NCBI GenBank assembly: GCA_052145255.1
Contig: JBKQOX010000026.1
Span: forward strand, 33,528 to 97,527
Origin: Terracidiphilus sp.
Lineage (GTDB): Bacteria > Acidobacteriota > Terriglobia > Terriglobales > Acidobacteriaceae
Length of the DNA stretch: 64,000 bases
Direction: 5' to 3'
The translations under genes and the position numbers were made by a program. Below the pieces are notes generated by a model that was not told the DNA's origin, did no database searches, and saw only the letters and a program-made list of their open reading frames with translations. Below are positions 3,101-18,809 of this stretch, piece after piece. Positions within the stretch are counted from its first letter, which is position 1. Each line of letters opens with the position of its first letter.

Positions 3101-3157
3101 GAGGGCACGCTCGTTCGCCGTGCCGAAGATTTTGGCTAACAACTTATCAAGAAACAC
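155..3157 (-). CDS. secA: Preprotein translocase ATPase SecA
   Basis: 1000 aa; MKTGEGKT Walker [51 protein letters not shown]-terminal SEC-C motif [19 protein letters not shown]; GTG start. Confidence 0.99.
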
Positions 3158-3307: not shown

Positions 3308-5773
3308 TTAGTTACTGAACAGCAACACGCCCGCCGCCTTCTCGTCGCCAACGGTCTCATCGGCGCTCACCGGCCGATAAAACAGTTGGTTTTGGTCGAG
3401 ATAGACCTCGAGGAACGCAGGCCGCTCCTGGATCTGCCCCGCGATCAGCGCCTCTGAGAGCGGATCTTCGATGTACCGCTGCAACGCGCGCCGCAACGGA
3501 CGTGCACCGTAGCTGCGGTCGACCAGCGTCTTGTCGAGAATCCATTTCTTTGCGTCGTCGTTCACTGAAATCGTGATCGACTTCTGCGCCAGGTTGGCGT
3601 TCAATAGCTGCACAAGCAGCTCGACAATCTGGATCAGGTCGGCATCGTTGAGCGACTGGAAGAGAATCACCTCATCGAGACGGTTAAGAAACTCGGGGTT
3701 GAAGGTCTTCTTCACCTCGTTCCTCACCAGCTCTTCAACTTTTTCGCTTACGATGTCTTCGCGCTCGCTCTGGAAGCCGAGCCCCTGTTTCTTCTGCAGG
3801 TGCCGCGCGCCGATGTTCGAGGTCATGATCACGATGGTGTTCTTGAAGTCGACGGTGTTGCCAAGGCCGTCTGTCAATTGCCCATCCTCAAACACCTGCA
3901 GCAGAATGTTGAATACATCCGGGTGAGCCTTCTCGATTTCGTCGAGCAGCACGACCGAGTACGGCGAGCGCTTCACTCGCTCCGTTAACTGCCCGCCCTC
4001 CTCGTAGCCCACGTAGCCTGGAGGCGAGCCGATCAGCTTCGACACCGAATGCTTCTCCATGAACTCCGACATATCGAAGCGGATTAAAGCCTTATCCGAC
4101 CCGAAGAGGAAGTTGGCCAGCGTACGCGCCATTTCTGTTTTTCCCACACCCGTTGGTCCAAGAAAAAGAAAAGAACCAATCGGCCGGTGCGGCGACTTCA
4201 AGCCCGCTCTCGATCGCCGGATCGCGCGTGCCAACGCAGAAATCGCCTTTTCCTGCGAGATCACGCGTTTGTGCAGCTCTTCTTCCACGCGCAGCAGCTT
4301 CTGCGTCTCTTCTTCCTTTATGCTGGTTACGGGTACGCCCGTCCAGCGGCTGACGACATCCTCGATGTCCTCGCGGCCAACAATGCCTGCCGCGGAGTCG
4401 TCGAGGTGGTACTTGTCGCGCAGTGCGCGCAGGTTCTCGCGCTCCTTGCGCTCTTCGTCGGAATAAAAACGCGCCTTCTCGAACTCGTGGTTGGCAATCG
4501 CCGAATCCATGCGATGCACGATGAACTTGATCCGCTTCTGCACCTCTGTGATCTCTTCGGGCAGCGAGGTCTGGCGCAGCTTCACGCGCGCACCGGCCTC
4601 ATCGATCAGATCGATGGCCTTGTCGGGCAAAAAGCGATCGGGAATGTAGCGACTCGAGTGCGAGACGGCGAATTCCACCGCGGCATCGGTATAGCTGACC
4701 GCGTGAAACTTTTCATAGCGGTCCTTGATGCCCATGATGATCTTGATCGCCTCAGCCTCGTTTGGCGGCGGCACTTTCACCGCCTGGAAGCGCCGCTCCA
4801 GCGAGCGATCCTTCTCGATCGACTTGCGGTATTCTGCCGGAGTCGTCGCGCCAATGCATTGAATCTCGCCGCGCGACAGAGCCGGCTTCAAGATGTTCGC
4901 TGCATCCAGCGATCCCTCCGCCGACCCCGCGCCGACCAGCGTATGCAACTCGTCGATGAACACAATCGAGTTCTGGCTCTCCATCAGCTCTTTCATGATG
5001 GTCTTCAGCCGCTCTTCGAATTGGCCACGATACTTTGTTCCCGCCACGATCAGCGACAGGTCCAGCGCCAGCACGCGCTTGTCGGCCAAAAAGCTCGGCA
5101 CTTCGCCGTCAGCTATCTTTTGCGCAAGGCCCTCGACGATCGCAGTCTTGCCCACGCCGGGCTCGCCAATCAGCACCGGATTGTTCTTGGTGCGCCGGCA
5201 CAGAATCTGTATCGAGCGCTCCAGCTCGCCCTCGCGCCCGACCAGCGGATCGAGTTGTCCGTCCATTGCCGCCTGCGTCAAGTCGCGGCTAAACTCCGCC
5301 AGCAGGCTTGACTCGCGCTGCCGCTGTTGCGGTGGCGCCTTCTCCTGCGTCACGCGCGCCAGCTCATCGCGAATTTGCGTCAGCTTTAGCCCGCGCTCCT
5401 GCAAAATCTCTGAGGCAAAGCACTTCTCTTCCCTCAGCAGTCCCAGCAGCAGATGTTCCGTACCAATATGTTTGTGTCCCAGCCGCTCGGCTTCCTCTGC
5501 GGCATATGCGAGCACTCGCTTGCACTCATTCGAAAGCGGCAGGTCGACGCTTGTCGACACCTTCTCGCGGATGGTGGTGTGCGCTTCAATTTGCTTCCGG
5601 ATCGACTCCACCGAGGCGTGCGAACGCAGGAAGCGGTTGGTTAACGCCTTGTCTTCGCGTAGCAGCCCCAGCAGTAAATGCTCGGTCTCGATATAAGGCG
5701 AGCCGAACTGGCTGGCCTCGTACCGCGCGAAGAAGATCACGCGCCGCGCCTTCTCCGTATACCGCTCGAACAT
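3308..5773 (-). CDS. clpC: ATP-dependent Clp protease ATP-binding subunit, ClpC type
   Basis: Start [11 protein letters not shown] at 5773; Clp_N repeats, two AAA modules ([16 protein letters not shown]), UVR-like middle domain ([13 protein letters not shown]), [20 protein letters not shown]. Confidence 0.95.
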
Positions 5774-10238: not shown

Positions 10239-11360
10239 TTGAAAATCTCACCGTCACTCAGTGCTCCCTTGATCCTCAACCACCCCCAGCTGCTCTCTGG
10301 CTCCACGGTCCTCGCACTTTCACTCGCTGCCTTCGCGCCCCACTCATTTGGGCAGTCGCACACGCCTCCACCATCGTCTCTGCCCGAATCTTCGCCCGCA
10401 CCGCTCGCAATCGATTCGGATCACGACGGCATCAGCGATGACCTCGAGCAATCTTTATTAGTGCAATTCGCTCCAAAGTTTCTCGTGGGCTCAGGTGATT
10501 GCTCCAACATTCCCGCTGAATTTCAGCCCGGCAACGCCACTCCGTTGGTGGAATCTGAAAACGGAACTATCTACGGCCAGGTATTTCCCGCAAAGGACCC
10601 CATCGACGGCGAGCCCGCTGCGGAGATTCACTACTACCATCTCTGGCGCATCGACTGCGGACCTCACGGCCATCCGCTTGATGCCGAGCACGTCTCCGTC
10701 CTCGTCCGCGCCTCCAACTCCGATCTCCGCTCTGCGACCTGGAAGGCCCTTTACTGGTACGCCGCCGCCCATGAGAACACCGTCTGCGATGTGAGTCAGA
10801 TCGCCCACGCCTCCACTCTTCATGCTGAAGACGCCGGCCCCAGCGTCTGGATCTCTCCCGGCAAGCATGCTTCCTATCTCAATCAAGCGCTCTGTCAAAA
10901 AGGTTGCGGAGCCGATCACTGCGAAAACATGGCGCCTCTCCGTCCCGCCAAGCTCGTCAACCTCGGCGAGCCCGGCTACCCCATGAACGGCTCCGTGTTC
11001 ATCGCCTCATCCGCGTGGCCACTCTCCGCCAAAATGTCCGAAACAAACTTTCCGGCCCCGGCTCTTGCGCGGCTCGGCGAACTTCCCGATTCTGAGATTG
11101 CATGGTTCAACCAGGGCAAGCATCCCAGGCAGGGAATCATCGCCATTAGCAGCACAACCGGGCAAGCGATCGCCGGCGGCGGTCGCGACACGATTTCAGG
11201 AATCTCCACCGCCGAGGACTCCAGCGGCAACGCGCTCCACAAGAGCTATCGCCACACGCGCCACGCGCTCGGCGCTTCCGCCCAACACGTCGGCAAAGCC
11301 CTCGGCATCGAGAATCACCCCGCCCCGCCCAAACCGCCGCCCGCCGCGAACACTCCTTAG
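10239..11360 (+). CDS. Secreted Cys-containing hypothetical protein
   Basis: Probable TTG start at 10239 after GAAAGG; signal-like VLALSLAAFAPHSFG; DSDHDGISD acidic loop; HYYHLW..DCGPHGHPLDAEHVSV; SPGKHASY. Confidence 0.75.
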   Translation: MKISPSLSAPLILNHPQLLSGSTVLALSLAAFAPHSFGQSHTPPPSSLPESSPAPLAIDSDHDGISDDLEQSLLVQFAPKFLVGSGDCSNIPAEFQPGNATPLVESENGTIYGQVFPAKDPIDGEPAAEIHYYHLWRIDCGPHGHPLDAEHVSVLVRASNSDLRSATWKALYWYAAAHENTVCDVSQIAHASTLHAEDAGPSVWISPGKHASYLNQALCQKGCGADHCENMAPLRPAKLVNLGEPGYPMNGSVFIASSAWPLSAKMSETNFPAPALARLGELPDSEIAWFNQGKHPRQGIIAISSTTGQAIAGGGRDTISGISTAEDSSGNALHKSYRHTRHALGASAQHVGKALGIENHPAPPKPPPAANTP

Positions 11361-11367
11361 CTCTCCG
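11326..11367 (+). repeat. 42-bp direct repeat, copy 1
   Basis: CGCCCAAACCGCCGCCCGCCGCGAACACTCCTTAGCTCTCCG; includes the last codons and stop of the upstream gene. Confidence 0.9.
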
Positions 11368-11432
11368 CCTCGCCTTCGCGTCTTGTCGGGACTTGCCAGC
11401 GACGCCCCCGCGAAAAACTTCCTTCGGGCCTC

Positions 11433-11837
11433 TCAGTCCCCCGCCTTGTTCAGCGCCGCAGCCGCGCGAATCAGAGTCTTCAGCGCCTTCTCGTTCACCT
11501 TCTCGCCTTCTTTGACGTCGATGGCGCGCCTCAATCTGCCTTCGAGGCTGGAATTGAACAGCCCGTCCGGATCATCCAGAAACGCGCCTTTGGCGAAGGT
11601 CATCTTCACCGCCTTCTTGTAGGTCTCGCCGGTGCAAATGATTCCGTCGTGCGACCACACAGGATTCCCCCACTTCCACTCTTCAACCACCTTGGGATCG
11701 GCCTGTTTGATCAACGCGCGCAGCCGCGCCAGCATCTCTCCGCGCCAATCGCCCAGCTCCTCGATTCTCAGGTCGATCAGCTTCGAAGCTGACCCGGCCT
11801 TTGCAGATCCCACCTTTGCGGAACTCTTCTTTTTCAT
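11433..11837 (-). CDS. DUF1801 (YdhG-like) family protein
   Basis: Start MKKKSSAK at 11837 after AAGGAGG; DPKVVEEWKWGNPVWSHDGIICTGETYKKAVKMTFAKGA..DP.GLFNSSLEG..RRAID. Confidence 0.9.
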   Translation of the reverse strand: MKKKSSAKVGSAKAGSASKLIDLRIEELGDWRGEMLARLRALIKQADPKVVEEWKWGNPVWSHDGIICTGETYKKAVKMTFAKGAFLDDPDGLFNSSLEGRLRRAIDVKEGEKVNEKALKTLIRAAAALNKAGD

Positions 11838-11890
11838 CGGAACGAAAGACCTCCTTTTCGCGATGCTATCGCAACAAGTTTCAGGCCGTC

Positions 11891-11932
11891 CGCCCAAGCC
11901 GCCGCCCGCCGCGAACACTCCTTAGCTCTCCG
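11891..11932 (+). repeat. 42-bp direct repeat, copy 2
   Basis: CGCCCAAGCCGCCGCCCGCCGCGAACACTCCTTAGCTCTCCG; 41/42 identical to copy 1. Confidence 0.9.
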
Positions 11933-11946
11933 TCTTCGCTTCAGCC

Positions 11947-12603
11947 TCAACTCCCAATCCGCTCCACCCGCTCGCGCAGATATTCTTTCCAACTCTCCGG
12001 GAACGCCTCAACCGCGAAAGTCTTCTCAATCGTCGCCACATCGGCGCTGCTATATCGTTTCGCGGTGTACAGGCGAACGATCTCTGAGATAGGCACGCCA
12101 TTCGGGTCGCGGCTTATCACCTTCATCGCATCGCCCGCGCACACCTCTCCTTCGCGAGTCACGGCCAGGTAGAACCCCGTGCGGCCGCTCGCAAGGAACC
12201 GCCTCACCATATCGTCGGATTCAAATCGTATCCCGAGTTTGTAGCAGGGCAGTCGCGGCTGGGTCACCACCACTTCCGCCGAACCGACGAAATACCGATC
12301 ACCGAGGTGGACCGACTCTTCTGGCGAGCTATCGAGCGTGAAGTTCTCCCCAAACACACCCATCGGTAGCTCTCGATCGGGCAATTCCTTCCTCCAGTAG
12401 TCGTAGTGTTCCAGCGGATAGCAGTAAACGGCCTTATACTCGCCGCCGTGAACCATCAGGTCAGCTTGGCCGTCTCCCTCCAGGTTCAGCTTGTGCAGAG
12501 CGATCCGTCCCGTCACCGGCTCTTTGAAGATTCCCGTGGACACGCTCGTCCCGTGCCAGGTCACCTCTCGCGGAAGCCCGACGTTCACTGAAATCACTCT
12601 CAT
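11947..12603 (-). CDS. MOSC domain protein, YiiM-like
   Basis: TGIFKEPV, GDGQAD..VHGG..KAVY, FGENFT, VTQPRLPCYKL, TGFYLAV. Confidence 0.9.
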   Translation of the reverse strand: MRVISVNVGLPREVTWHGTSVSTGIFKEPVTGRIALHKLNLEGDGQADLMVHGGEYKAVYCYPLEHYDYWRKELPDRELPMGVFGENFTLDSSPEESVHLGDRYFVGSAEVVVTQPRLPCYKLGIRFESDDMVRRFLASGRTGFYLAVTREGEVCAGDAMKVISRDPNGVPISEIVRLYTAKRYSSADVATIEKTFAVEAFPESWKEYLRERVERIGS

Positions 12604-13194
12604 CTAGCCATCGTACTTGTCTGCCGCGCCCGCGAGCCCTTCGCTTTTCTAATCCCAGGTCGTTATTCCCCGGTCTCTGTCTTCCCCCGCCCACCCATTT
12701 TCCGAGGAATAAAGTACGCGGCGAAGCCGCGATCAAATCTTCAGCCCAATTCATCGGCCGTCATCCTGCGCACCCAAATCATCGGCGCCACGACGAGCGA
12801 ATGGCTCTCGACAGAGCCGACAGTCCCTCCCGCCATCCAGCGTTTCTTGGGCCGCGAGCACCCTGGGCAAGGCTGCGGAGCTGCCGGGATCGACGGGCGC
12901 GGGGTCGCCGAAAACGGCCGAGCGGCCCGAGAAACCTTGCCACAAGCCGACTTTTCGTTACCTATTGGCGCGAACTTCAGATGAAGGACAATGGCCCCAC
13001 CAAACCCGCGTTTCGAATCTATCGCCGCGTTGAGTGATTCACAATGTGCGGATTCGGAAATAGAGATCATTTTGCCTGAGCCGGGTGGGAGAACGCTCCG
13101 CAGCTGATGAGGCGAAACGCGCCTCAACGAGTCCAGTAGCGAGGGACCGGATATACCATAATGGAAATACCAGATTAGATCGGCTGGATCAACT

Positions 13195-14418
13195 ATGCCT
13201 GAAGCGCCTGTAAAACCGGACCTGGGATCGCTGCGCATCGAAGCCCACAAGCGAGGCTCCCGAAATGCTGGCAAGCGCATCGCGATCATTCTTTTCCCGC
13301 TGCTCGCCGCGCTCATAGTCGCAGGAGGAGTCTACGCGTACATACACCAGGCGCCCTCGGTGCAGGTTGCAACCGCAGACGCCCCTGACAACGGGCCACA
13401 GGCCCTGCTCAACGCGAGCGGGTATGTCACCCCGCAGCGGCGCGCCACCGTAGCGGCCAAGATCACGGGGCGCGTTACGGGTGTTTTCTTTACCGAAGGG
13501 ATGTACGTGCACACAGGCTTTGTACTGGCCACCCTTGACGATTCCGATGCGCAACGGACGCTGGCTTCCGCGAAAGCAGATCGCAATGCCACGCAGGCAA
13601 GCATTCTCGATTTGCAAGTGCAGTTGAAGAACGCGCAGATAGAGTTGCATCGGGCCCAGGATCTGAGGGCGGCAGGAATTCAAACTCAGGAAGCGCTCGA
13701 CAATGCGACGATGGCCGTGAACAGCCTGAAAGCGAAAATCGACTACACGCAGGCGCAGGTGCTGTCTGCTGACGCGCGCATCAAAGAGGCGCAGCAGGCG
13801 GTGGATAACTGCATCATCACGGCTCCGTTCGACGGCATCATCGTTTCCAAGGACGCGCAGGTGGGAGAAATGGTGTCGCCAATTTCTGCCGGCGGTGGCT
13901 TCACGCGCACAGGCATCGCGACGATTGTCGATATGGCCTCGAATGAAATCGAAGTGGATGTCAACGAGAACTACATCGCTCGCGTCAAGAGCGGCCAGGA
14001 AGTAACCGCCGTTTTGGATGCATATCCGGACTGGAAGATTCCGTGCCGTGTGCGCACGATCATTCCCACAGCCGATCGTCAGAAGGCGACTGTCGAGGTG
14101 CGCATTGCCTTCGACAAGCTGGATCCGCGCATCCTGCCCGATATGGGCGTGAAGGTCACGTTCCTCGGGGAAGAAACAAAGGTCGGGAAAGAAGCGCCGG
14201 CGAGCGTAATGGTGCCGCAGAATGCGGTCCGCGACGATGGCGGGCAGAAGATCGTTTTCCTGGTGACAGGCGATCACGTCGAGCGTCACGCCGTGAAGGT
14301 CGGCACGACCAACGGAGCGCAAACGCAGATTCTGGCGGGGCTCGTGGCCGGGGACACAGTCGTGGTTGGTGGGCCCTCCAACTTGAAAGATGGCGAAACG
14401 GTAGCAATCAAGCGTTAA
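13195..14418 (+). CDS. Periplasmic adaptor (HlyD/MacA family)
   Basis: N-terminal TM, ASGYV, coiled hairpin, IITAPFDGIIV, EVDVNE, ILPDMGVKV. Confidence 0.9.
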   Translation: MPEAPVKPDLGSLRIEAHKRGSRNAGKRIAIILFPLLAALIVAGGVYAYIHQAPSVQVATADAPDNGPQALLNASGYVTPQRRATVAAKITGRVTGVFFTEGMYVHTGFVLATLDDSDAQRTLASAKADRNATQASILDLQVQLKNAQIELHRAQDLRAAGIQTQEALDNATMAVNSLKAKIDYTQAQVLSADARIKEAQQAVDNCIITAPFDGIIVSKDAQVGEMVSPISAGGGFTRTGIATIVDMASNEIEVDVNENYIARVKSGQEVTAVLDAYPDWKIPCRVRTIIPTADRQKATVEVRIAFDKLDPRILPDMGVKVTFLGEETKVGKEAPASVMVPQNAVRDDGGQKIVFLVTGDHVERHAVKVGTTNGAQTQILAGLVAGDTVVVGGPSNLKDGETVAIKR

Positions 14419-14551
14419 CGCGCCGTTCTTGCAACTCAGTTATCCTTCTGTGATTGGGAATTGCGGAGTGGGACACAGGATGCTGTCCCCGCGAGGAACG
14501 GCGCGATTCGGGCTATGGATCGGATATCGCGGAAATCAAGGAGTGTTGATC

Positions 14552-15292
14552 ATGGTACGCGTGGACGGCAATGGAGCAGTGGGCAGTCTGATTCGCGTTC
14601 GCGGTTTGGACAAAACTTATCGCCGCGGCAACGAGGAAATCGACGTCTTGCAGGGCTTGAATCTCGATGTCGATAAAGGCGACTTCGTGGCCTTCATGGG
14701 GCCGAGCGGCTCGGGCAAGACCACGTTGCTCAATTTGATGGGCGGCCTCGACGTTCCCACGCGCGGCACCATCAGCGTGGCCGGCGATGAAATCACGCAC
14801 ATGTCTGGCAGCAAGCTGACCAACTGGCGGGCGCGCCACGTCGGTTTCATCTTCCAGATGTACAACCTCATTCCCGTGCTTACCGCCTTCGGGAACGTCG
14901 AATTGCCCTTGCTGCTGACCAGGCTTTCCAAGGCCGAGCGCCGCAAGCACATTGAAACTGCTCTTTCCATCGTTGGTTTGGGCGATCGCATGAACCACTA
15001 TCCGCGCCAGCTTTCCGGCGGACAGGAACAGCGTGTTGCCATCGCCCGCGCCATCGTCGCCGATCCCACGTTCCTGCTTTGCGACGAGCCCACCGGCGAC
15101 CTGGACCGCAAAAGCGCCGACGAAGTGATGGAACTCATCAAGCGGTTAGTGAAGGAGCATGGAAAAACCGTGCTGATGGTAACGCACGACCCGGTGGTTG
15201 CGCGCCAGGCCGATACGACACTGCATCTCGAAAAGGGAGTGCTGGTAGAAGCAGGCACGCCGCCGGCAATTGCCGGGGGAGCGCTGTCATGA
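14552..15292 (+). CDS. ABC transporter ATP-binding protein (MacB/LolD clan)
   Basis: ATG 14552 after AAGGAG; GPSGSGKTT, LSGGQEQRVAIARA, CDEPTGDLD. Confidence 0.92.
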   Translation: MVRVDGNGAVGSLIRVRGLDKTYRRGNEEIDVLQGLNLDVDKGDFVAFMGPSGSGKTTLLNLMGGLDVPTRGTISVAGDEITHMSGSKLTNWRARHVGFIFQMYNLIPVLTAFGNVELPLLLTRLSKAERRKHIETALSIVGLGDRMNHYPRQLSGGQEQRVAIARAIVADPTFLLCDEPTGDLDRKSADEVMELIKRLVKEHGKTVLMVTHDPVVARQADTTLHLEKGVLVEAGTPPAIAGGALS

Positions 15293-16440
15293 AATTCAGC
15301 AAACTCATTCTCGCCAATCTGCTTCGCAAGAAGGCACGGCTGGTTCTCACCATCGGTTCGTTCGCTGTGGCGCTTTTCCTGTTTGCGCTGCTGGGAGTGG
15401 TGAACGACGCCTTCAGCCGCGGGGCAGACGTCGTGAGCGCGAATCGCCTCGTCACCATCAATCGCACGTCAATCATCAACACGGTACCGTTGTCCTACCG
15501 GGACGAAATCCTGCGCATTCCGGGCGTGACGTACGTGACACACGACAATTGGTTCGGCGGCGTGTATCAGGATGCTAAGAATTTCTTCCCTCAATTTGTG
15601 ATCGATCCGGAGAACCAGCGCCAGGTTTACCCAGAGCTCATCGTTCCCGACGATCAGTGGGATACATTCCTGAAAGATCGCCAGGGCGCGATTGTCGGCG
15701 CGGTTACCATGAAGCGCTTCGGCTGGAAGGTCGGCGACCGCATTCCCATCACGACAACTATCTATGGGCTGGCTGGCAAGCCCTTCGAGTTCAATATCGA
15801 TGGCGTTTACCACGGCGCGAAGCCCGAAGATGACGAGACCCAGTTTTGGTTCCAGTGGGAATACTTCAAAGAGAGCGTGCCCGATTCGATCAAAGGCCAG
15901 GTTGGTTGGTACACGGTTCGCATCGCTGACCCCGACGACGCCCCGCGTATCGCCAAGACCATCGACAACATGTACATGAATTCGCCCTACGAAACGAAGA
16001 CCGAGACAGAGTCCGCGTTTGCCGAGGGCTGGGTGAAGCAGTTCGGAAATATCAAATTCCTGATCGTTTCGATCGGGACCGTCGTTTTCTTCACGCTCTT
16101 GCTGGTTACCGGAAACACGATGGCCATCTCCGTGCGCGAGCGAACGAATGAGCTGGGCGTGCTCAAGGCTATCGGTTTTCCGGATGGCACGATCCTTGCG
16201 TTCATTCTGGGCGAGTCGATGGCGATCGCGCTTGCCGGTTGCGTGGGCTTGCTGCTTGCGCTGGTCGTCATTCCGGTGCTAAGCCGCGCAATGGCCGGTC
16301 TCTTGCCGCCGCTTCTGGTTACGGCCAAAACGTTGGTGTTCGGTGTGATCGCTGCTCTCATGGTCGGCTTCGCCAGCGGAATTCTTCCCGCCTACGGTGC
16401 GATGCGCATGCGTGTAGTGAATGCCCTTCGGAGGGTGTGA
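15289..16440 (+). CDS. MacB/FtsX-type ABC permease 1
   Basis: ATGA overlap with the ATPase gene; TM1, large periplasmic domain, ISVRERTNELGVLKAIGF, ASGILPAY. Confidence 0.9.
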   Translation: MKFSKLILANLLRKKARLVLTIGSFAVALFLFALLGVVNDAFSRGADVVSANRLVTINRTSIINTVPLSYRDEILRIPGVTYVTHDNWFGGVYQDAKNFFPQFVIDPENQRQVYPELIVPDDQWDTFLKDRQGAIVGAVTMKRFGWKVGDRIPITTTIYGLAGKPFEFNIDGVYHGAKPEDDETQFWFQWEYFKESVPDSIKGQVGWYTVRIADPDDAPRIAKTIDNMYMNSPYETKTETESAFAEGWVKQFGNIKFLIVSIGTVVFFTLLLVTGNTMAISVRERTNELGVLKAIGFPDGTILAFILGESMAIALAGCVGLLLALVVIPVLSRAMAGLLPPLLVTAKTLVFGVIAALMVGFASGILPAYGAMRMRVVNALRRV

Positions 16441-16442
16441 GC

Positions 16443-17729
16443 ATGGTGACAAAACTCTTTTTCGGCGCGGTGATCACCCTTGCGGCCATCGCTGCGCTGC
16501 TCCTGATTTTGGTCATCGTTGGCGGGATCGTGGCCGGATTGCTGGCGCCGCTGATCGGTTCCGTACCGATTTCCTACAACCTCCGCAGCATTCGGGCACG
16601 CTGGACTTCCACGATCGTGGCCATTCTGGGCATTGCCGGGACGGTCGGCGTATTCGTGGCCATGCTTTCGCTGGCGCGCGGTTTCCGGGCCACGCTGGTG
16701 GCCTCAGGCACGCCCGACGATGCGCTGGTGATGCGGGCCGGCTCGACCACGGAAATGATGGGCGGCATCACTCTCGATTCTGTGAAGCTGGTACAAGATA
16801 AGCCTGGCGTGGCACGCGATGCGTCGGGGCAGCCGCTGGTCACGCAGGAAGTCGTCGGCGTCGTTCCCATACCACTGATCAGCACAGGCACGGACGCGAA
16901 TGTGGAAGTCCGCGGCGTTTCGCCCAACGTCCTCGAAATCCGCCAATTCGTGAAGGTCGTGCAAGGGCGGATGTTTCATTCTGGGCTGGACGAGCTTGTG
17001 GTGGGCAAGAATGCCTCGAAAACCTACGAGGGCCTGACCGTTGGCAACACGGTGAACTTCGGCGGCGGGCACTGGAAGGTTGTAGGAGTGTTCGACGCGG
17101 GCGGATCGTCGTTCGATTCCGAAGTGTGGTGCGACTCGCGCATCCTGAACGAAGTGCTCAAGCGCCCCGAAAACATCTTTCAATCTGCCACTGTTCACCT
17201 CACTTCGCCCGCGGCATTCGACAAATTCAAGGATTCGATTACTTCCGACCCGCAGTTGAATTTGGAAGTCGAGCGCGAAGTGGATTACTACGCCAAGCAA
17301 TCCTCGGCCATGACGCAGCTGATCACCGTGTTGGGCGGTCTGGTGGCTGCCGTCATGGCGATCGGCGCCGTATTTGGCGCTCTCAACACCATGTACTCGG
17401 CCGTCTCCGAACGCGGACGTGAGATTGCCACCATGCGCGCGCTCGGCTTTTCCAGCTGGAACGTCATCCTCTCGTTCTTGTTCGAGGCGCTGCTGATTTC
17501 TTTCATAGCCGGCATTATCGGCTGTGTGGTCGTGCTTCCGCTGAATGGCATGACCACGCAGACCATGAATTTCTCGACCTTCTCGAACATTGCCTTCGCC
17601 TTCAAGATCACATTCAACTTGCTTGTGATGGGGGTGATATTCGCGCTGGCTATGGGCGTTCTCGGCGGCATGCTGCCCGCAGTGCGCGCCGCGCTGCGCC
17701 CTGTCGCCGTCGCCCTGCGCGAGTTGTAG
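16443..17729 (+). CDS. MacB/FtsX-type ABC permease 2
   Basis: ATG 16443; NTMYSAVSERGREIATMRALGF, GGMLPAVRAA; extra N-terminal TM. Confidence 0.9.
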   Translation: MVTKLFFGAVITLAAIAALLLILVIVGGIVAGLLAPLIGSVPISYNLRSIRARWTSTIVAILGIAGTVGVFVAMLSLARGFRATLVASGTPDDALVMRAGSTTEMMGGITLDSVKLVQDKPGVARDASGQPLVTQEVVGVVPIPLISTGTDANVEVRGVSPNVLEIRQFVKVVQGRMFHSGLDELVVGKNASKTYEGLTVGNTVNFGGGHWKVVGVFDAGGSSFDSEVWCDSRILNEVLKRPENIFQSATVHLTSPAAFDKFKDSITSDPQLNLEVEREVDYYAKQSSAMTQLITVLGGLVAAVMAIGAVFGALNTMYSAVSERGREIATMRALGFSSWNVILSFLFEALLISFIAGIIGCVVVLPLNGMTTQTMNFSTFSNIAFAFKITFNLLVMGVIFALAMGVLGGMLPAVRAALRPVAVALREL

Positions 17730-18173
17730 GGAACCTGTGACGAAGGCACAGTGATACATAGCAAACCATAATTGGAATCAATGACCATTTTCCGTAGCTA
17801 ATTACAGGCGTCGGATCTGGCGTGGTCATTGAGCAGGTCTTAGGGTGCAACGATTAGTCCTCGAAAACGCCGATATCGCCCGCAAAAGCCCTCCGACCGA
17901 CCCCTTCTCGTCGCCCGCGCAAGCCCCTCCCGGCCGGCGATCCATCCCAACCCCGCTGCGCCTGCCTTTCTGTCAAGCTCTCAATCGCCCAAACGCGCCC
18001 ATCAAACTCACCCTAACCGCTTGCCTTTTCGGTCACTTATTGACTCCCAAATCTTCCTCCCCAAGTTTGCCGATCATTATGCCCGTTTGGCGCACAATAA
18101 TCCCATGATCGCTATTCCGAGAATCGTTGGCTCCCGGCTTTTCGCAGAAACGCGATCAAGGAGGAAACTTAAT

Positions 18174-18311
18174 TTAAGAAAAAATTTGGGATGTTTCGCC
18201 TGATTTTCGCCAAATAACTCGTTTAGAATCAGCGGGCGTATTCCGAAAATGGGCTGAAAATGAGCGCACTTAAGTCGAATCTATGTGCCATAACCCGTTT
18301 AGAATCAGCAA
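18174..18311 (+). repeat. AT-rich dispersed element, copy A, with two ATAACYCGTTTAGAATCAGC cores 76 bp apart
   Basis: 18174-18233 is 57/60 identical to the reverse complement of 29879-29938; cores at 18214-18233 and 18290-18309. Confidence 0.85.
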
Positions 18312-18809
18312 GAATATCCCAAGAAATGACGGACGGTTTTAAGAACCGCAAGCAACTCTCCTGAAAGGAGTTATTGGCCAACGCGGGCTATGCTGTCTGC
18401 TGTCTCCAGCTTGCTGTCTGAAGCCCGCTCTCCGCTATTCACTTTTCACTGTCCACTGTCTTAAAAACAGTGTGCCTCACCCGTTATGTCCCCCGACTCC
18501 CGAGTGAGGCACTTAGTTGTCCCAGGTCTCTAAATCGGAGTCTCCTCCCCCCGAAGCAGACTCCGACTTTTCGAGCCGCCCGACTACTACGGCCTTTTAC
18601 CTCTGCATCACGAATTCGGCTCCTCGTACCACCTGCCCGTGAAGCATTGGGACAACGGTCCCGGCATTCTCCCGCCGATCTTGCAATTGCTGCAGGCGAT
18701 GCATTGTAGGAGACGATGGAGGTCGAAGCTTTGTTGCAAAATCGGCGCGACAAAATCAGAGACATCAACGCAGGCATTCGCTGTTAAGGCAAGAAAAAAT
18801 CCGCATCAG

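Follow-up and report, generated by a model that had tools for sequence, protein, structure and literature searches.

How does a small gene come to lie between two long direct repeats, one of which supplies the working 3' end of the gene beside it? The question is raised by a locus in a 4.28-Mb MAG of Terracidiphilus (G000), studied here in a window of 64,000 nucleotides, by which we mean the whole stretch of DNA analysed. The original prediction took the segment between the repeats for a minimal, self-expressing cassette mobilised in trans, or else for the trimmed relic of an integrase island that had entered at a protein-coding 3' end. We arrive at a different reading, to which we assign a probability of roughly 0.6: the distal repeat is the scar of a 3'-end displacement, produced by recombination between structural alleles that was anchored by homology on one side and illegitimate on the other.

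The repeats and the genes around them

The locus is organised as follows (window coordinates):

10239..11360, plus strand: gene A, an open reading frame of 373 aa, secreted-looking, with the tail ...KPPPAANTP*
11325..11377, plus strand: copy 1, which supplies the ~11 C-terminal codons in use in gene A and the TAG at 11358-11360, followed by 17 nt of spacer
11378..11432, no strand: spacer of 55 nt from copy 1 to the stop codon of DUF1801, found otherwise only in G011 and G323
11433..11837, minus strand: DUF1801 (YdhG-like) gene, 134 aa, PF08818 at E=1.7e-22, with its ATG at the complement of 11835-11837
11838..11889, minus strand: conserved 5' region of the DUF1801 gene, with the SD AAGGAGG (complement of 11850-11856) and a palindrome
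11890..11942, plus strand: copy 2, a probably displaced, non-coding remnant of the gene A 3' end, adjoining the MOSC stop
11947..12603, minus strand: MOSC-domain (YiiM-like) gene, PF03473 at 3e-33, convergent with gene A
11361..17863, no strand: variable zone, delimited by synteny blast and Pfam, with DUF1801, MOSC and a MacAB-type HlyD/ABC/FtsX efflux set

The direct-repeat search returned a single family, namely this pair, whose copies match at 48 of 53 nt (91%), lie 565 bp apart from start to start and enclose a cargo of 512 bp. Their core is formed by the first 43 nt, 42 of them identical, with a sole A/G mismatch at base 9; the 42-mer of the original prediction (11326-11367 and 11891-11932) does agree at 41 positions. 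Its further claims about the anatomy also hold, as the final ~11 codons and the TAG of gene A fall within copy 1, and the insert lies within the 3' end of that gene, with this end duplicated. Copy 2 comprises 35 coding nt, including TAG, and 18 nt of spacer. A genome-wide look-up of the 42-mer had been proposed as a check; run as a pattern of the 43-nt core with up to 3 mismatches, it found just the two copies in the entire MAG and nothing in the reversed control. A scan of the genome for the same architecture gave 56 short-range direct repeats, nearly all of them tandem paralogues or intragenic repeats, and the candidates C30 and C45 proved unconvincing as analogues of a repeat-flanked insert.

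The boundaries themselves carry few features. The repeat search found no inverted repeats, terminal ones included, at the edges of the insert, and neither boundary has a terminator-like structure. When the two boundaries are folded as ssDNA, each strand in turn, they score z -0.7 to +1.6 relative to shuffles, with no attC-like hairpin, which speaks against a cassette.

Gene A, which matches no Pfam, NCBIfam, toxin or other family and has orthologues in 57 of 401 sampled genomes of the genus, bounds the variable zone on the left as a conserved gene; upstream of it lie UbiA/CtaB-like, DUF420 and small membrane protein genes. The zone extends over ~6.5-7.5 kb, differs in gene content among relatives, and synteny is back at ~17.9-18.9 kb. 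Between the copies the antisense DUF1801 gene is, as first described, the only convincing gene. The genome holds a single copy of it, and its protein has no PDB or NCBIfam match. Orthologues at 77-81% amino acid identity occur only in G011, G365, G323 and G157, with remoter ones in G332 and G302, and the close orthologues are confined to this locus in a few related species. A reading of DUF1801 as a mobile cassette of multiple contexts was rejected: elsewhere there are only paralogues of 45-61% identity, with no common boundaries. The expression signals originally ascribed to the gene stand in part, since the AAGGAGG and TAGCAT strings exist, the latter contained in the palindrome GCGATGCTATCGC at 11860-11872 of the 5' region, but a scan for the sigma-70 consensus calls no promoter upstream. 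The MOSC protein resembles NF008577 with a score below the cut-off.

Fixation of the two-copy arrangement

Could the second copy be a product of assembly? The original prediction named such an artefact as grounds for abandoning it, and a fusion of two strains via their common DUF1801 gene is at least conceivable given that the genome is a MAG and that each junction alone occurs in other species. However, five further contigs (L175-L179), each from an independent assembly, carry both copies and thus both junctions on one contig, at 99.3-100% identity; they align gaplessly to window positions 11201-12100 at 99.8-100% and have SNPs of their own. The arrangement is, therefore, not an assembly artefact. 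The alignment of DUF1801 likewise gave no mosaic or chimera signal within the gene, and we regard a chimeric origin as hardly credible.

Together with the MAG these contigs make up six assemblies of the population. Copy 2 is without variation in the five contigs, and no contig with an empty site was found in the population among the loci retrieved with the exact DUF1801 and MOSC protein sequences. The two-copy arrangement is fixed in the population.

Alternative layouts in related genomes

The relatives compared are all MAGs, ordered by a tree from two flanking genes only. Gene A adjoins MOSC in G293, G059, G254, G294 and G371, and MOSC is its ancestral right-hand neighbour. In the first three of these genomes gene A passes directly into MOSC with one repeat copy. 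This is the empty layout that the original prediction proposed to seek in relatives, and it comes only from distant ones (~78-80% identity) with gene A tails of the type ...AKTP*; an empty-type genome with an AANTP tail was not found. The gene A/MOSC junction of these three genomes runs colinear with copy 2 and the sequence to its right, including the joint with the MOSC stop, which is the same as in the window. The reconstructed empty site likewise aligns in colinear fashion. The single copy of G293 aligns to both copies of the window, and the two HSPs overlap by 53 nt.

A different layout is found in G011 and G323, which have copy 1, the spacer and DUF1801 in common with the window; copy 1 is identical at 53/53 positions in G011. 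Homology to the window is unbroken from upstream of gene A to 11886 in both genomes and in the metagenome contigs L173 and L174, which represent the G011 population, and it ends 1-4 bp before copy 2, as a single crossover between layouts predicts. The corresponding ends lie at 11874 in G157, 11868 in G332 and 11877 in G302. To judge from these alignments, 11886-11889, the right end of the DUF1801 5' region, is the breakpoint common to all lineages. Neither a second repeat copy nor MOSC was found anywhere in the G011 assembly (97% complete), and a larger island of G011-type genomes ending in copy 2 and MOSC was rejected since both are absent there. The 17-nt tail of copy 1 after TAG resembles the empty-type spacer as much as the tail of copy 2 does, and the spacer part of copy 1 aligns to the empty-type spacer of G293 as far as the CTTC that immediately precedes the MOSC stop. 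This match suggests that the G011-type layout itself derives from an empty-type junction.

Two other elements of this layout were traced. The 55-nt spacer does not significantly resemble the spacers between hydrolase and DUF1801 in G365 and G157, and its interpretation as a leftover of such a spacer was rejected, the local alignment score being equal to the shuffle mean. An AT-rich element, Z, which follows DUF1801 in G011 and G323, matches only C32 and C64; it does not belong to the family of the dispersed cassette at ~18.2 kb of the window, an element with ~20 copies of its own.

The age of the right-hand junction is indicated by G365, another species, which possesses the same succession of DUF1801, copy 2 and MOSC. 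Its copy 2 is orthologous but decayed: it is of the AANTP type, differs by 9 changes in 43 nt and has lost the stop, and the working tail of gene A in this genome, ETKTP*, abuts an extra hydrolase. A relic that is shared and decayed is, therefore, an old one, free of selection in G365. The core of copy 2 has 1 change in the window against 9 in G365 (43 nt; Fisher p=0.015). Neutral decay alone would not leave it in such a state, for which one has to assume gene conversion by copy 1, a more recent origin or a constraint of some kind. A further decayed copy 2, sought in G053 with its order of gene A, hydrolase and MOSC, was not significant, 195 of 1000 shuffles scoring as well.

These observations bear on an active form of the original reading, in which the 565-bp unit of repeat and DUF1801 is still excising and re-integrating through a recombinase encoded elsewhere. 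Its anatomy would allow this, and recombinases are indeed present elsewhere in the genome. However, the unit is single-copy and fixed, lacks hairpins and inverted repeats, and shares with G365 a junction that is ancient and whose second copy is already decaying there; its core is absent elsewhere in the genome, and the close orthologues of its gene are restricted to this one locus and to a few related species. We consider such activity highly improbable, and mobilisation in trans of a minimal cassette is not supported.

The tails of gene A go together with what lies downstream: AANTP* with DUF1801 directly following (G000, G011, G323), ETKTP* with the hydrolase (G365, G053, G157, G302) and ...AKTP* with MOSC (G293, G059, G254). 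When the left junction (copy 1 or hydrolase) is tabulated against the right one (copy 2-MOSC or other), all 4 of 4 combinations occur among the closest relatives, and this four-gamete pattern indicates recombination.

Absence of a recombinase at the site

What could have brought the two copies into being? An unlikely candidate is a tyrosine-recombinase element whose attP was identical to the last ~43-53 nt of gene A and which entered in Campbell fashion, leaving DUF1801 between the att copies after its integrase and most of its cargo were lost or left only in G011-type genomes. An element-proximal repeat that rebuilds the 3' end of the target, combined with a single-copy empty site, is the textbook signature of such an event. 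A further site-specific event would account for the homology between G011-type genomes and the window breaking off right at the edge of copy 2, the core of copy 2 is unusually well preserved in the window, and the 13 tyrosine recombinases encoded in the genome (PF00589) could work in trans.

Against this stands the inventory of the site. The 13 matches are on other contigs or ~65 kb off at the end of contig C26, and the window contains no PF00589 integrase, so that the absence of an integrase near the insert, part of the original description, is borne out. None of the genomes examined has a recombinase at or near this site, the variable zones of G000, G365, G157 and G011 included, and the site is free of integrases, transposases and tRNA genes in G000, G365 and G011; the sole transposase of G157 is IS5-like and sits within an R-M methylase gene, kilobases away. 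No intI/attI platform adjoins the insert, and no tRNA or known RNA forms an island border. A trimmed island would also have to accommodate the missing second copy and MOSC in G011 and the decay of copy 2 in G365. The repeat core, found just twice in the genome, is met in metagenomes only where it ends gene A itself, and there is one relic at most per genome, never an array. Insertions at the same place do without it: the alpha/beta-hydrolase at the end of gene A in G365, G157, G053 and G302 has no flanking repeat, and neither has the DUF1801 unit in its other contexts in G157, G332 and G302. A trimmed integrase island is not supported either. Recombination between structural alleles accounts for the pattern better than integration at a specific site does.

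One may also suppose, as a quite improbable variant, that the 43-nt core is a site for an unlinked, trans-acting recombinase and that the zone from gene A to 18 kb is an integrase-less array of single-gene units. If so, a protein-coding 3' end would be the place where self-expressing units of DUF1801, hydrolase and MOSC enter and change their order, and copy 2 would be so well preserved in this species since it still serves as a site.

A probable displacement scar

From the anatomy of the locus, the empty layout, the shared and decayed relic, the coincident breakpoints, the lack of recombinases and the fixation, all of which are shown, we infer an order of events and its enzymology. The starting state would be gene A and MOSC in convergent orientation, ~20 bp apart, as survives in G293, G059 and G254. 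The donor allele, of the G011/G323 layout, would have had the gene A end and 17-20 nt of the same spacer joined to the DUF1801 unit. Upon recombination of this donor with an empty-type allele, the left joint would have formed by ordinary homology within or upstream of gene A, and the right joint by one illegitimate join, in which the promoter region of DUF1801, at its upstream edge, became attached to a point 35 nt before the stop of gene A. An equivalent route may have been the entry of a small circular or linear piece, consisting of the gene A end and DUF1801, through the ~53-nt homology; an anchor of 53 bp is short for a RecA-dependent crossover. No clear microhomology can be read at the joints. 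As the outcome, the incoming copy 1 would terminate gene A, and the resident copy 2 would have been shifted 565 bp downstream, where it abuts MOSC. The host's homologous and illegitimate recombination would suffice as agents, with no dedicated integrase involved. The event presumably preceded the split from G365, and the structure would now be fixed and immobile in the chromosome. Among Terracidiphilus lineages that occur together, homologous exchange may subsequently have mixed left and right halves, giving rise to all the junction combinations.

Is a donor allele necessary at all? A local duplication de novo would have moved a DUF1801 gene already resident in the zone next to gene A with a 53-bp target duplication, either by template switching or fill-in of a staggered break, or through tandem duplication followed by deletions. 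Foreign DNA would be unnecessary, as DUF1801 is native downstream of gene A in G332, G302, G157 and G365, and copies identical at birth are consistent with the 42/43 core. However, this route requires a series of steps, or else a staggered break of unusual length, and no second copy of DUF1801 or MOSC persists as a trace of tandem duplication. The tails of the two copies differ at 4 of 10 positions, and that of copy 2 is common to G365 rather than to copy 1. Nor does a local duplication give a reason for the G011/G323 layout ending exactly at copy 2. All this makes it a rather doubtful explanation, and we retain recombination between structural alleles as the preferred origin of copy 2.

The proposed scar introduces no new mechanism and opens no long-standing question. 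It is mainly a cautionary case, in which long repeats that rebuild the 3' end of a neighbouring gene mimic an att-flanked mobile element. For comparative genomics, such repeats can be the footprint of ordinary structural-allele recombination in a plastic zone, and very small orphan ends, here of 53 nt, may serve as markers for ordering gene gain and loss.

Comparison with known systems

The locus has the outward appearance of integrase-driven islands, ICEs and prophages residing in the 3' ends of tRNA, tmRNA and protein genes: repeats bracket the insert, its proximal copy restores the 3' end, and relatives, here distant ones at ~78-80% identity, offer a single-copy empty site. Unlike these elements, it has no recombinase, no further island genes and a cargo of only 512 bp; its repeat has decayed in a sister species, the gene A end has received other insertions without any repeats, and the core is not reused. 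Integron cassettes and integrase-less cis-mobilisable elements (CIMEs) consist of a single small gene with repeats resembling recombination sites and are conceivably mobilised in trans. The DUF1801 insert likewise places one small gene between site-like repeats, yet it differs from an integron cassette in having no folded attC and no intI/attI, in possessing its own conserved upstream region, in being single-copy and in showing no sign of movement. Transposons and insertion sequences, with their transposase, terminal inverted repeats and target duplications of 2-14 bp, differ from an insert that holds DUF1801 alone, lacks terminal inverted repeats and has a duplication of 53 bp.

Closer parallels exist among loci where the ends of genes are displaced. 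At rhs loci C-terminal displacement leaves orphan tips that are start-less and degenerate, no integrase takes part, and homologous recombination of a small (circular) intermediate via a common segment has been proposed as the mechanism (Jackson et al. 2009, PMC2935791). As in rhs, an intact gene A is followed by newer DNA and then by an orphan direct-repeat piece of its 3'-proximal sequence, and the orphan fragment, copy 2, is non-functional and, in the lineage of G365, degenerate. Here, however, the repeat consists of 35 coding nt and 18 nt of spacer as against the hundreds of bp of an rhs core; there is one displaced end in place of an array, the tips are nearly alike, and the inserted gene is antisense. 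Gene A is also not recognisable as a polymorphic toxin, nor is DUF1801 a known immunity family.

In Vibrio cholerae, T6SS effector/immunity modules are displaced by homology-facilitated illegitimate recombination, for which no integrase was found (Kirchberger et al. 2017, PMC5361080). The resemblance includes a conserved upstream gene that serves as the homologous anchor while the other end is joined illegitimately, the retention of old material downstream and the mosaic combinations in relatives. The pairing of alternative gene A tips with alternative downstream genes is a trait of rhs and T6SS-type displacement alike. The V. cholerae loci concern toxin/immunity pairs under strong selection, with displaced genes that are functional, whereas the relic described here is a 53-nt non-coding one, accompanied by an ordinary small gene. 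By this analogy, the process appears to resemble rhs/T6SS displacement, yet the locus is not a member of the rhs/T6SS toxin loci. Displacement of 3' ends, familiar from such toxin loci, may also act on a non-toxin gene, in this instance in little-studied soil Acidobacteria.

Repeat structure and gene content

The repeat search of the window returned a pair of direct repeats of 53 nt and 91% identity, spaced 565 bp start to start, with a single base differing in the first 43 nt. Copy 1 comprises the final 11 codons of gene A, its TAG (11358-11360) and 17 nt of spacer, bearing out the original prediction of direct repeats in which insertion has duplicated a gene's 3' end. The genome-wide search proposed with it, run with a 43-mer pattern at ≤3 mismatches, recovered two sites only in the 4.28-Mb genome, copies 1 and 2, and the reversed 43-mer control gave 0 matches there. 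The locus is composed as follows:

10239-11360, + strand: gene A, an ORF
11325-11377: copy 1, direct repeat paired with 11890-11942
11433-11837, - strand: DUF1801 gene, CDS of 134 aa (PF08818, E=1.7e-22)
11890-11942: copy 2, direct repeat paired with 11325-11377
11947-12603, - strand: MOSC/YiiM-like gene, its stop 4 nt rightward of copy 2

Gene A has no match in Pfam or NCBIfam, and the DUF1801 gene is the sole credible gene between the copies. The AAGGAGG and TAGCAT strings ascribed to its expression are both present beside it, but a consensus scan called neither a sigma-70 promoter nor a terminator there. TAGCAT lies within a perfect palindrome, GCGATGCTATCGC (11860-11872), ~25 nt ahead of the DUF1801 start. 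Most of the close DUF1801 orthologues retain the motif GATGCTA.(C/A)GCA, as does a homologue of 59% identity in genome G054. The palindrome is a candidate operator or promoter element.

The window's genome is a Terracidiphilus (Acidobacteriaceae) MAG, and an assembly artefact had been named as a possible refutation. Looking up contigs that encode exactly the window's DUF1801 protein gave five independently assembled metagenome contigs (L175-L179), which match 11201-12100 gap-free at 99.8-100%. Because each carries both copies along with its own SNPs elsewhere (99.3-100% overall), an assembly chimera is excluded for practical purposes. Copy 2 does not vary among them; in copy 1, a single contig shows a synonymous SNP of its own. 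The returned contigs encoding exactly this MOSC protein included no empty-site variant: they show the same arrangement only, or are short Logan contigs that break off within copy 2, the behaviour expected of a k=31 assembler at a repeat >31 nt.

Layouts among relatives

Gene A is conserved in part of the genus (57/401 sampled genomes). Genes and junctions were mapped in ~18 fetched orthologous loci, which, the window included, display six layouts.

Layouts of the gene A locus (AANTP* and ETKTP*, C-terminal tail types of the gene A protein; relic, displaced copy 2 or its G365 counterpart)
Empty type (G293, G059, G254, G294, G371): geneA -> <-MOSC <-hydrolase
G157: geneA(ETKTP*)-hydrolase-DUF1801-other
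G365: geneA(ETKTP*)-hydrolase-DUF1801-relic-MOSC
G053: geneA(ETKTP*)-hydrolase-MOSC
G011, G323 and metagenome contigs L173, L174: geneA(AANTP*)-copy 1-55-nt spacer-DUF1801-unrelated DNA
Window: geneA(AANTP*)-copy 1-spacer-DUF1801-copy 2-MOSC

The anticipated empty sites exist in five relatives, with ~20 nt between the gene A and MOSC stops in G293, G059 and G254. Both window copies can be aligned with the single copy of G293, in two HSPs that have 53 nt in common, and an empty site reconstructed from the left flank, one copy and the right flank of the window is colinear with it. Neither MOSC nor a second repeat copy was found anywhere in the G011 assembly. The tail type is coupled to the downstream gene, AANTP* with DUF1801, ETKTP* with the hydrolase and ...AKTP* with MOSC. 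All four left-by-right junction combinations occur among the closest relatives and do not track the flank-gene tree, a pattern that implies homologous exchange between lineages. In G365, G053 and G302 the stops of gene A and the convergent alpha/beta-hydrolase share one CTAG, a 4-nt tail-to-tail overlap with zero intergenic sequence (L079 of G365, 3110-3120; L038 of G053, 3544-3552).

Since synteny with all relatives picks up again only at ~17.9-18.9 kb of the window, gene A marks the left edge of a variable zone of ~6.5-7.5 kb. In the window this zone carries MacAB-type efflux genes; in G365, a sigma-54 activator and a DUF308 gene; and in G011, PadR, permease and ABC genes. In G157 (L100, 10865-13839) it is occupied by an R-M module whose N6/N4 DNA methylase gene is interrupted by an IS5-like DDE transposase (DUF772 + DDE_Tnp_1); the downstream methylase fragment also bears an Mrr_cat nuclease domain.

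Beyond MOSC, within a non-coding gap of 590 bp, a ~90-nt stretch (12849-12936) finds matches of 81-88% on contigs C9 and C21 of G011 (twice on C21) and in G053; G365 homology ends just past it at 12961, and that of the population contigs L175 and L176 at 12953-12961. The stretch is probably a small repeat of dispersed type at a further breakpoint. A dispersed AT-rich element with ~20 partial copies genome-wide opens the conserved right border (18164-18374). A distinct AT-rich family of ~280 nt follows DUF1801 in G011 (L093, 9640-9950), ahead of the PadR/permease/ABC cluster, and in G323 (L094, 4480-4715), with two copies, 73-79% identical, in the window's genome (C32:8509-8789, C64:56077-56362).

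Breakpoints, age and origin of the repeat

Copy 2 with its right flank reads as the ancestral geneA|MOSC junction, copy 2 being the displaced resident 3' end. Homology between the window and G011/G323 is continuous from kilobases upstream through DUF1801 and ends at 11886-11889, 1-4 bp short of the copy 2 start. After the TAG, copy 1 has a 17-nt tail that is itself homologous to the spacer of the empty type and runs out immediately ahead of the would-be MOSC stop; the G011-type layout, too, is thus derived from an empty-type junction. The only block common to all DUF1801 carriers runs from the stop codon to ~50 nt upstream of the start (~11425-11889), and in G157, G332 and G302 it has no flanking repeat. 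Sequence comparison detected no source for the 55-nt spacer, and a search for an AANTP-tailed empty allele found none.

One illegitimate joint between two structural alleles of the locus is the simplest account that covers both coincident breakpoints. A G011-type allele would have contributed the left part, as far as the edge of the region upstream of DUF1801, and an empty-type allele the right, beginning 35 nt ahead of the gene A stop, with ordinary homology supplying the second crossover. Equivalently, a small piece carrying the gene A end and DUF1801 could have crossed in via the ~53-nt homology. In both versions gene A would now end in the incoming copy, and the resident copy would be displaced.

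The original prediction favoured a mini-cassette mobilised in trans or the relic of an integrase island, a reading that the analysis does not support. Its observation that no integrase is present holds: the window contains no tyrosine recombinase, and the genome's 13 are encoded on other contigs or far off at the end of C26. Searches for tRNAs and Rfam families gave nothing, and ssDNA folding of both boundaries was no better than that of shuffled sequence. The DUF1801|relic|MOSC junction recurs in G365, a different species from a different assembly project and ~91% identical at the locus, and thus predates the split of the two species. The G365 relic is of AANTP type, while the working gene A tail there is of ETKTP type; the relic has lost its stop and changed at 9/43 core positions, and so shows no conservation as a site. 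The copy 2 tail groups with this relic, not with copy 1. The copy 2 core has one change in 43 nt in the window vs nine in G365 (p=0.015), and constraint or site function may lie behind this preservation; on that account we retain as unlikely the reading of the copies as attL/attR remnants of an integrase island, and as very improbable the use of the core by an unlinked recombinase. Gene conversion from copy 1, possible only where the gene A tail matches (AANTP), could account for the preserved core.

Comparison with known systems

Elsewhere in the window's genome, a 75-nt direct repeat of 98.7% identity (C30:78683-78757 and 79743-79817) surrounds a single 258-aa minus-strand gene, and its second copy codes for the C-terminal ~25 residues of the gene that follows (79723-81297, -). 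Either another 3'-end duplication or a fragment of a paralogue could explain it.

[quoted passage not shown] It is likewise similar to the displacement of T6SS effector/immunity genes through homology-facilitated illegitimate recombination (PMC5361080). Both proceed without an integrase (PMC2935791, PMC5361080), and the correspondence between gene A tail type and downstream gene is consistent with this picture. Unlike those loci, gene A is no recognisable toxin and has one relic only, and the likeness is therefore one of process rather than membership. The structure is best read as an old recombination scar, now fixed, within a chromosomal zone that is plastic; as such it adds a small new instance to a class of event already known.
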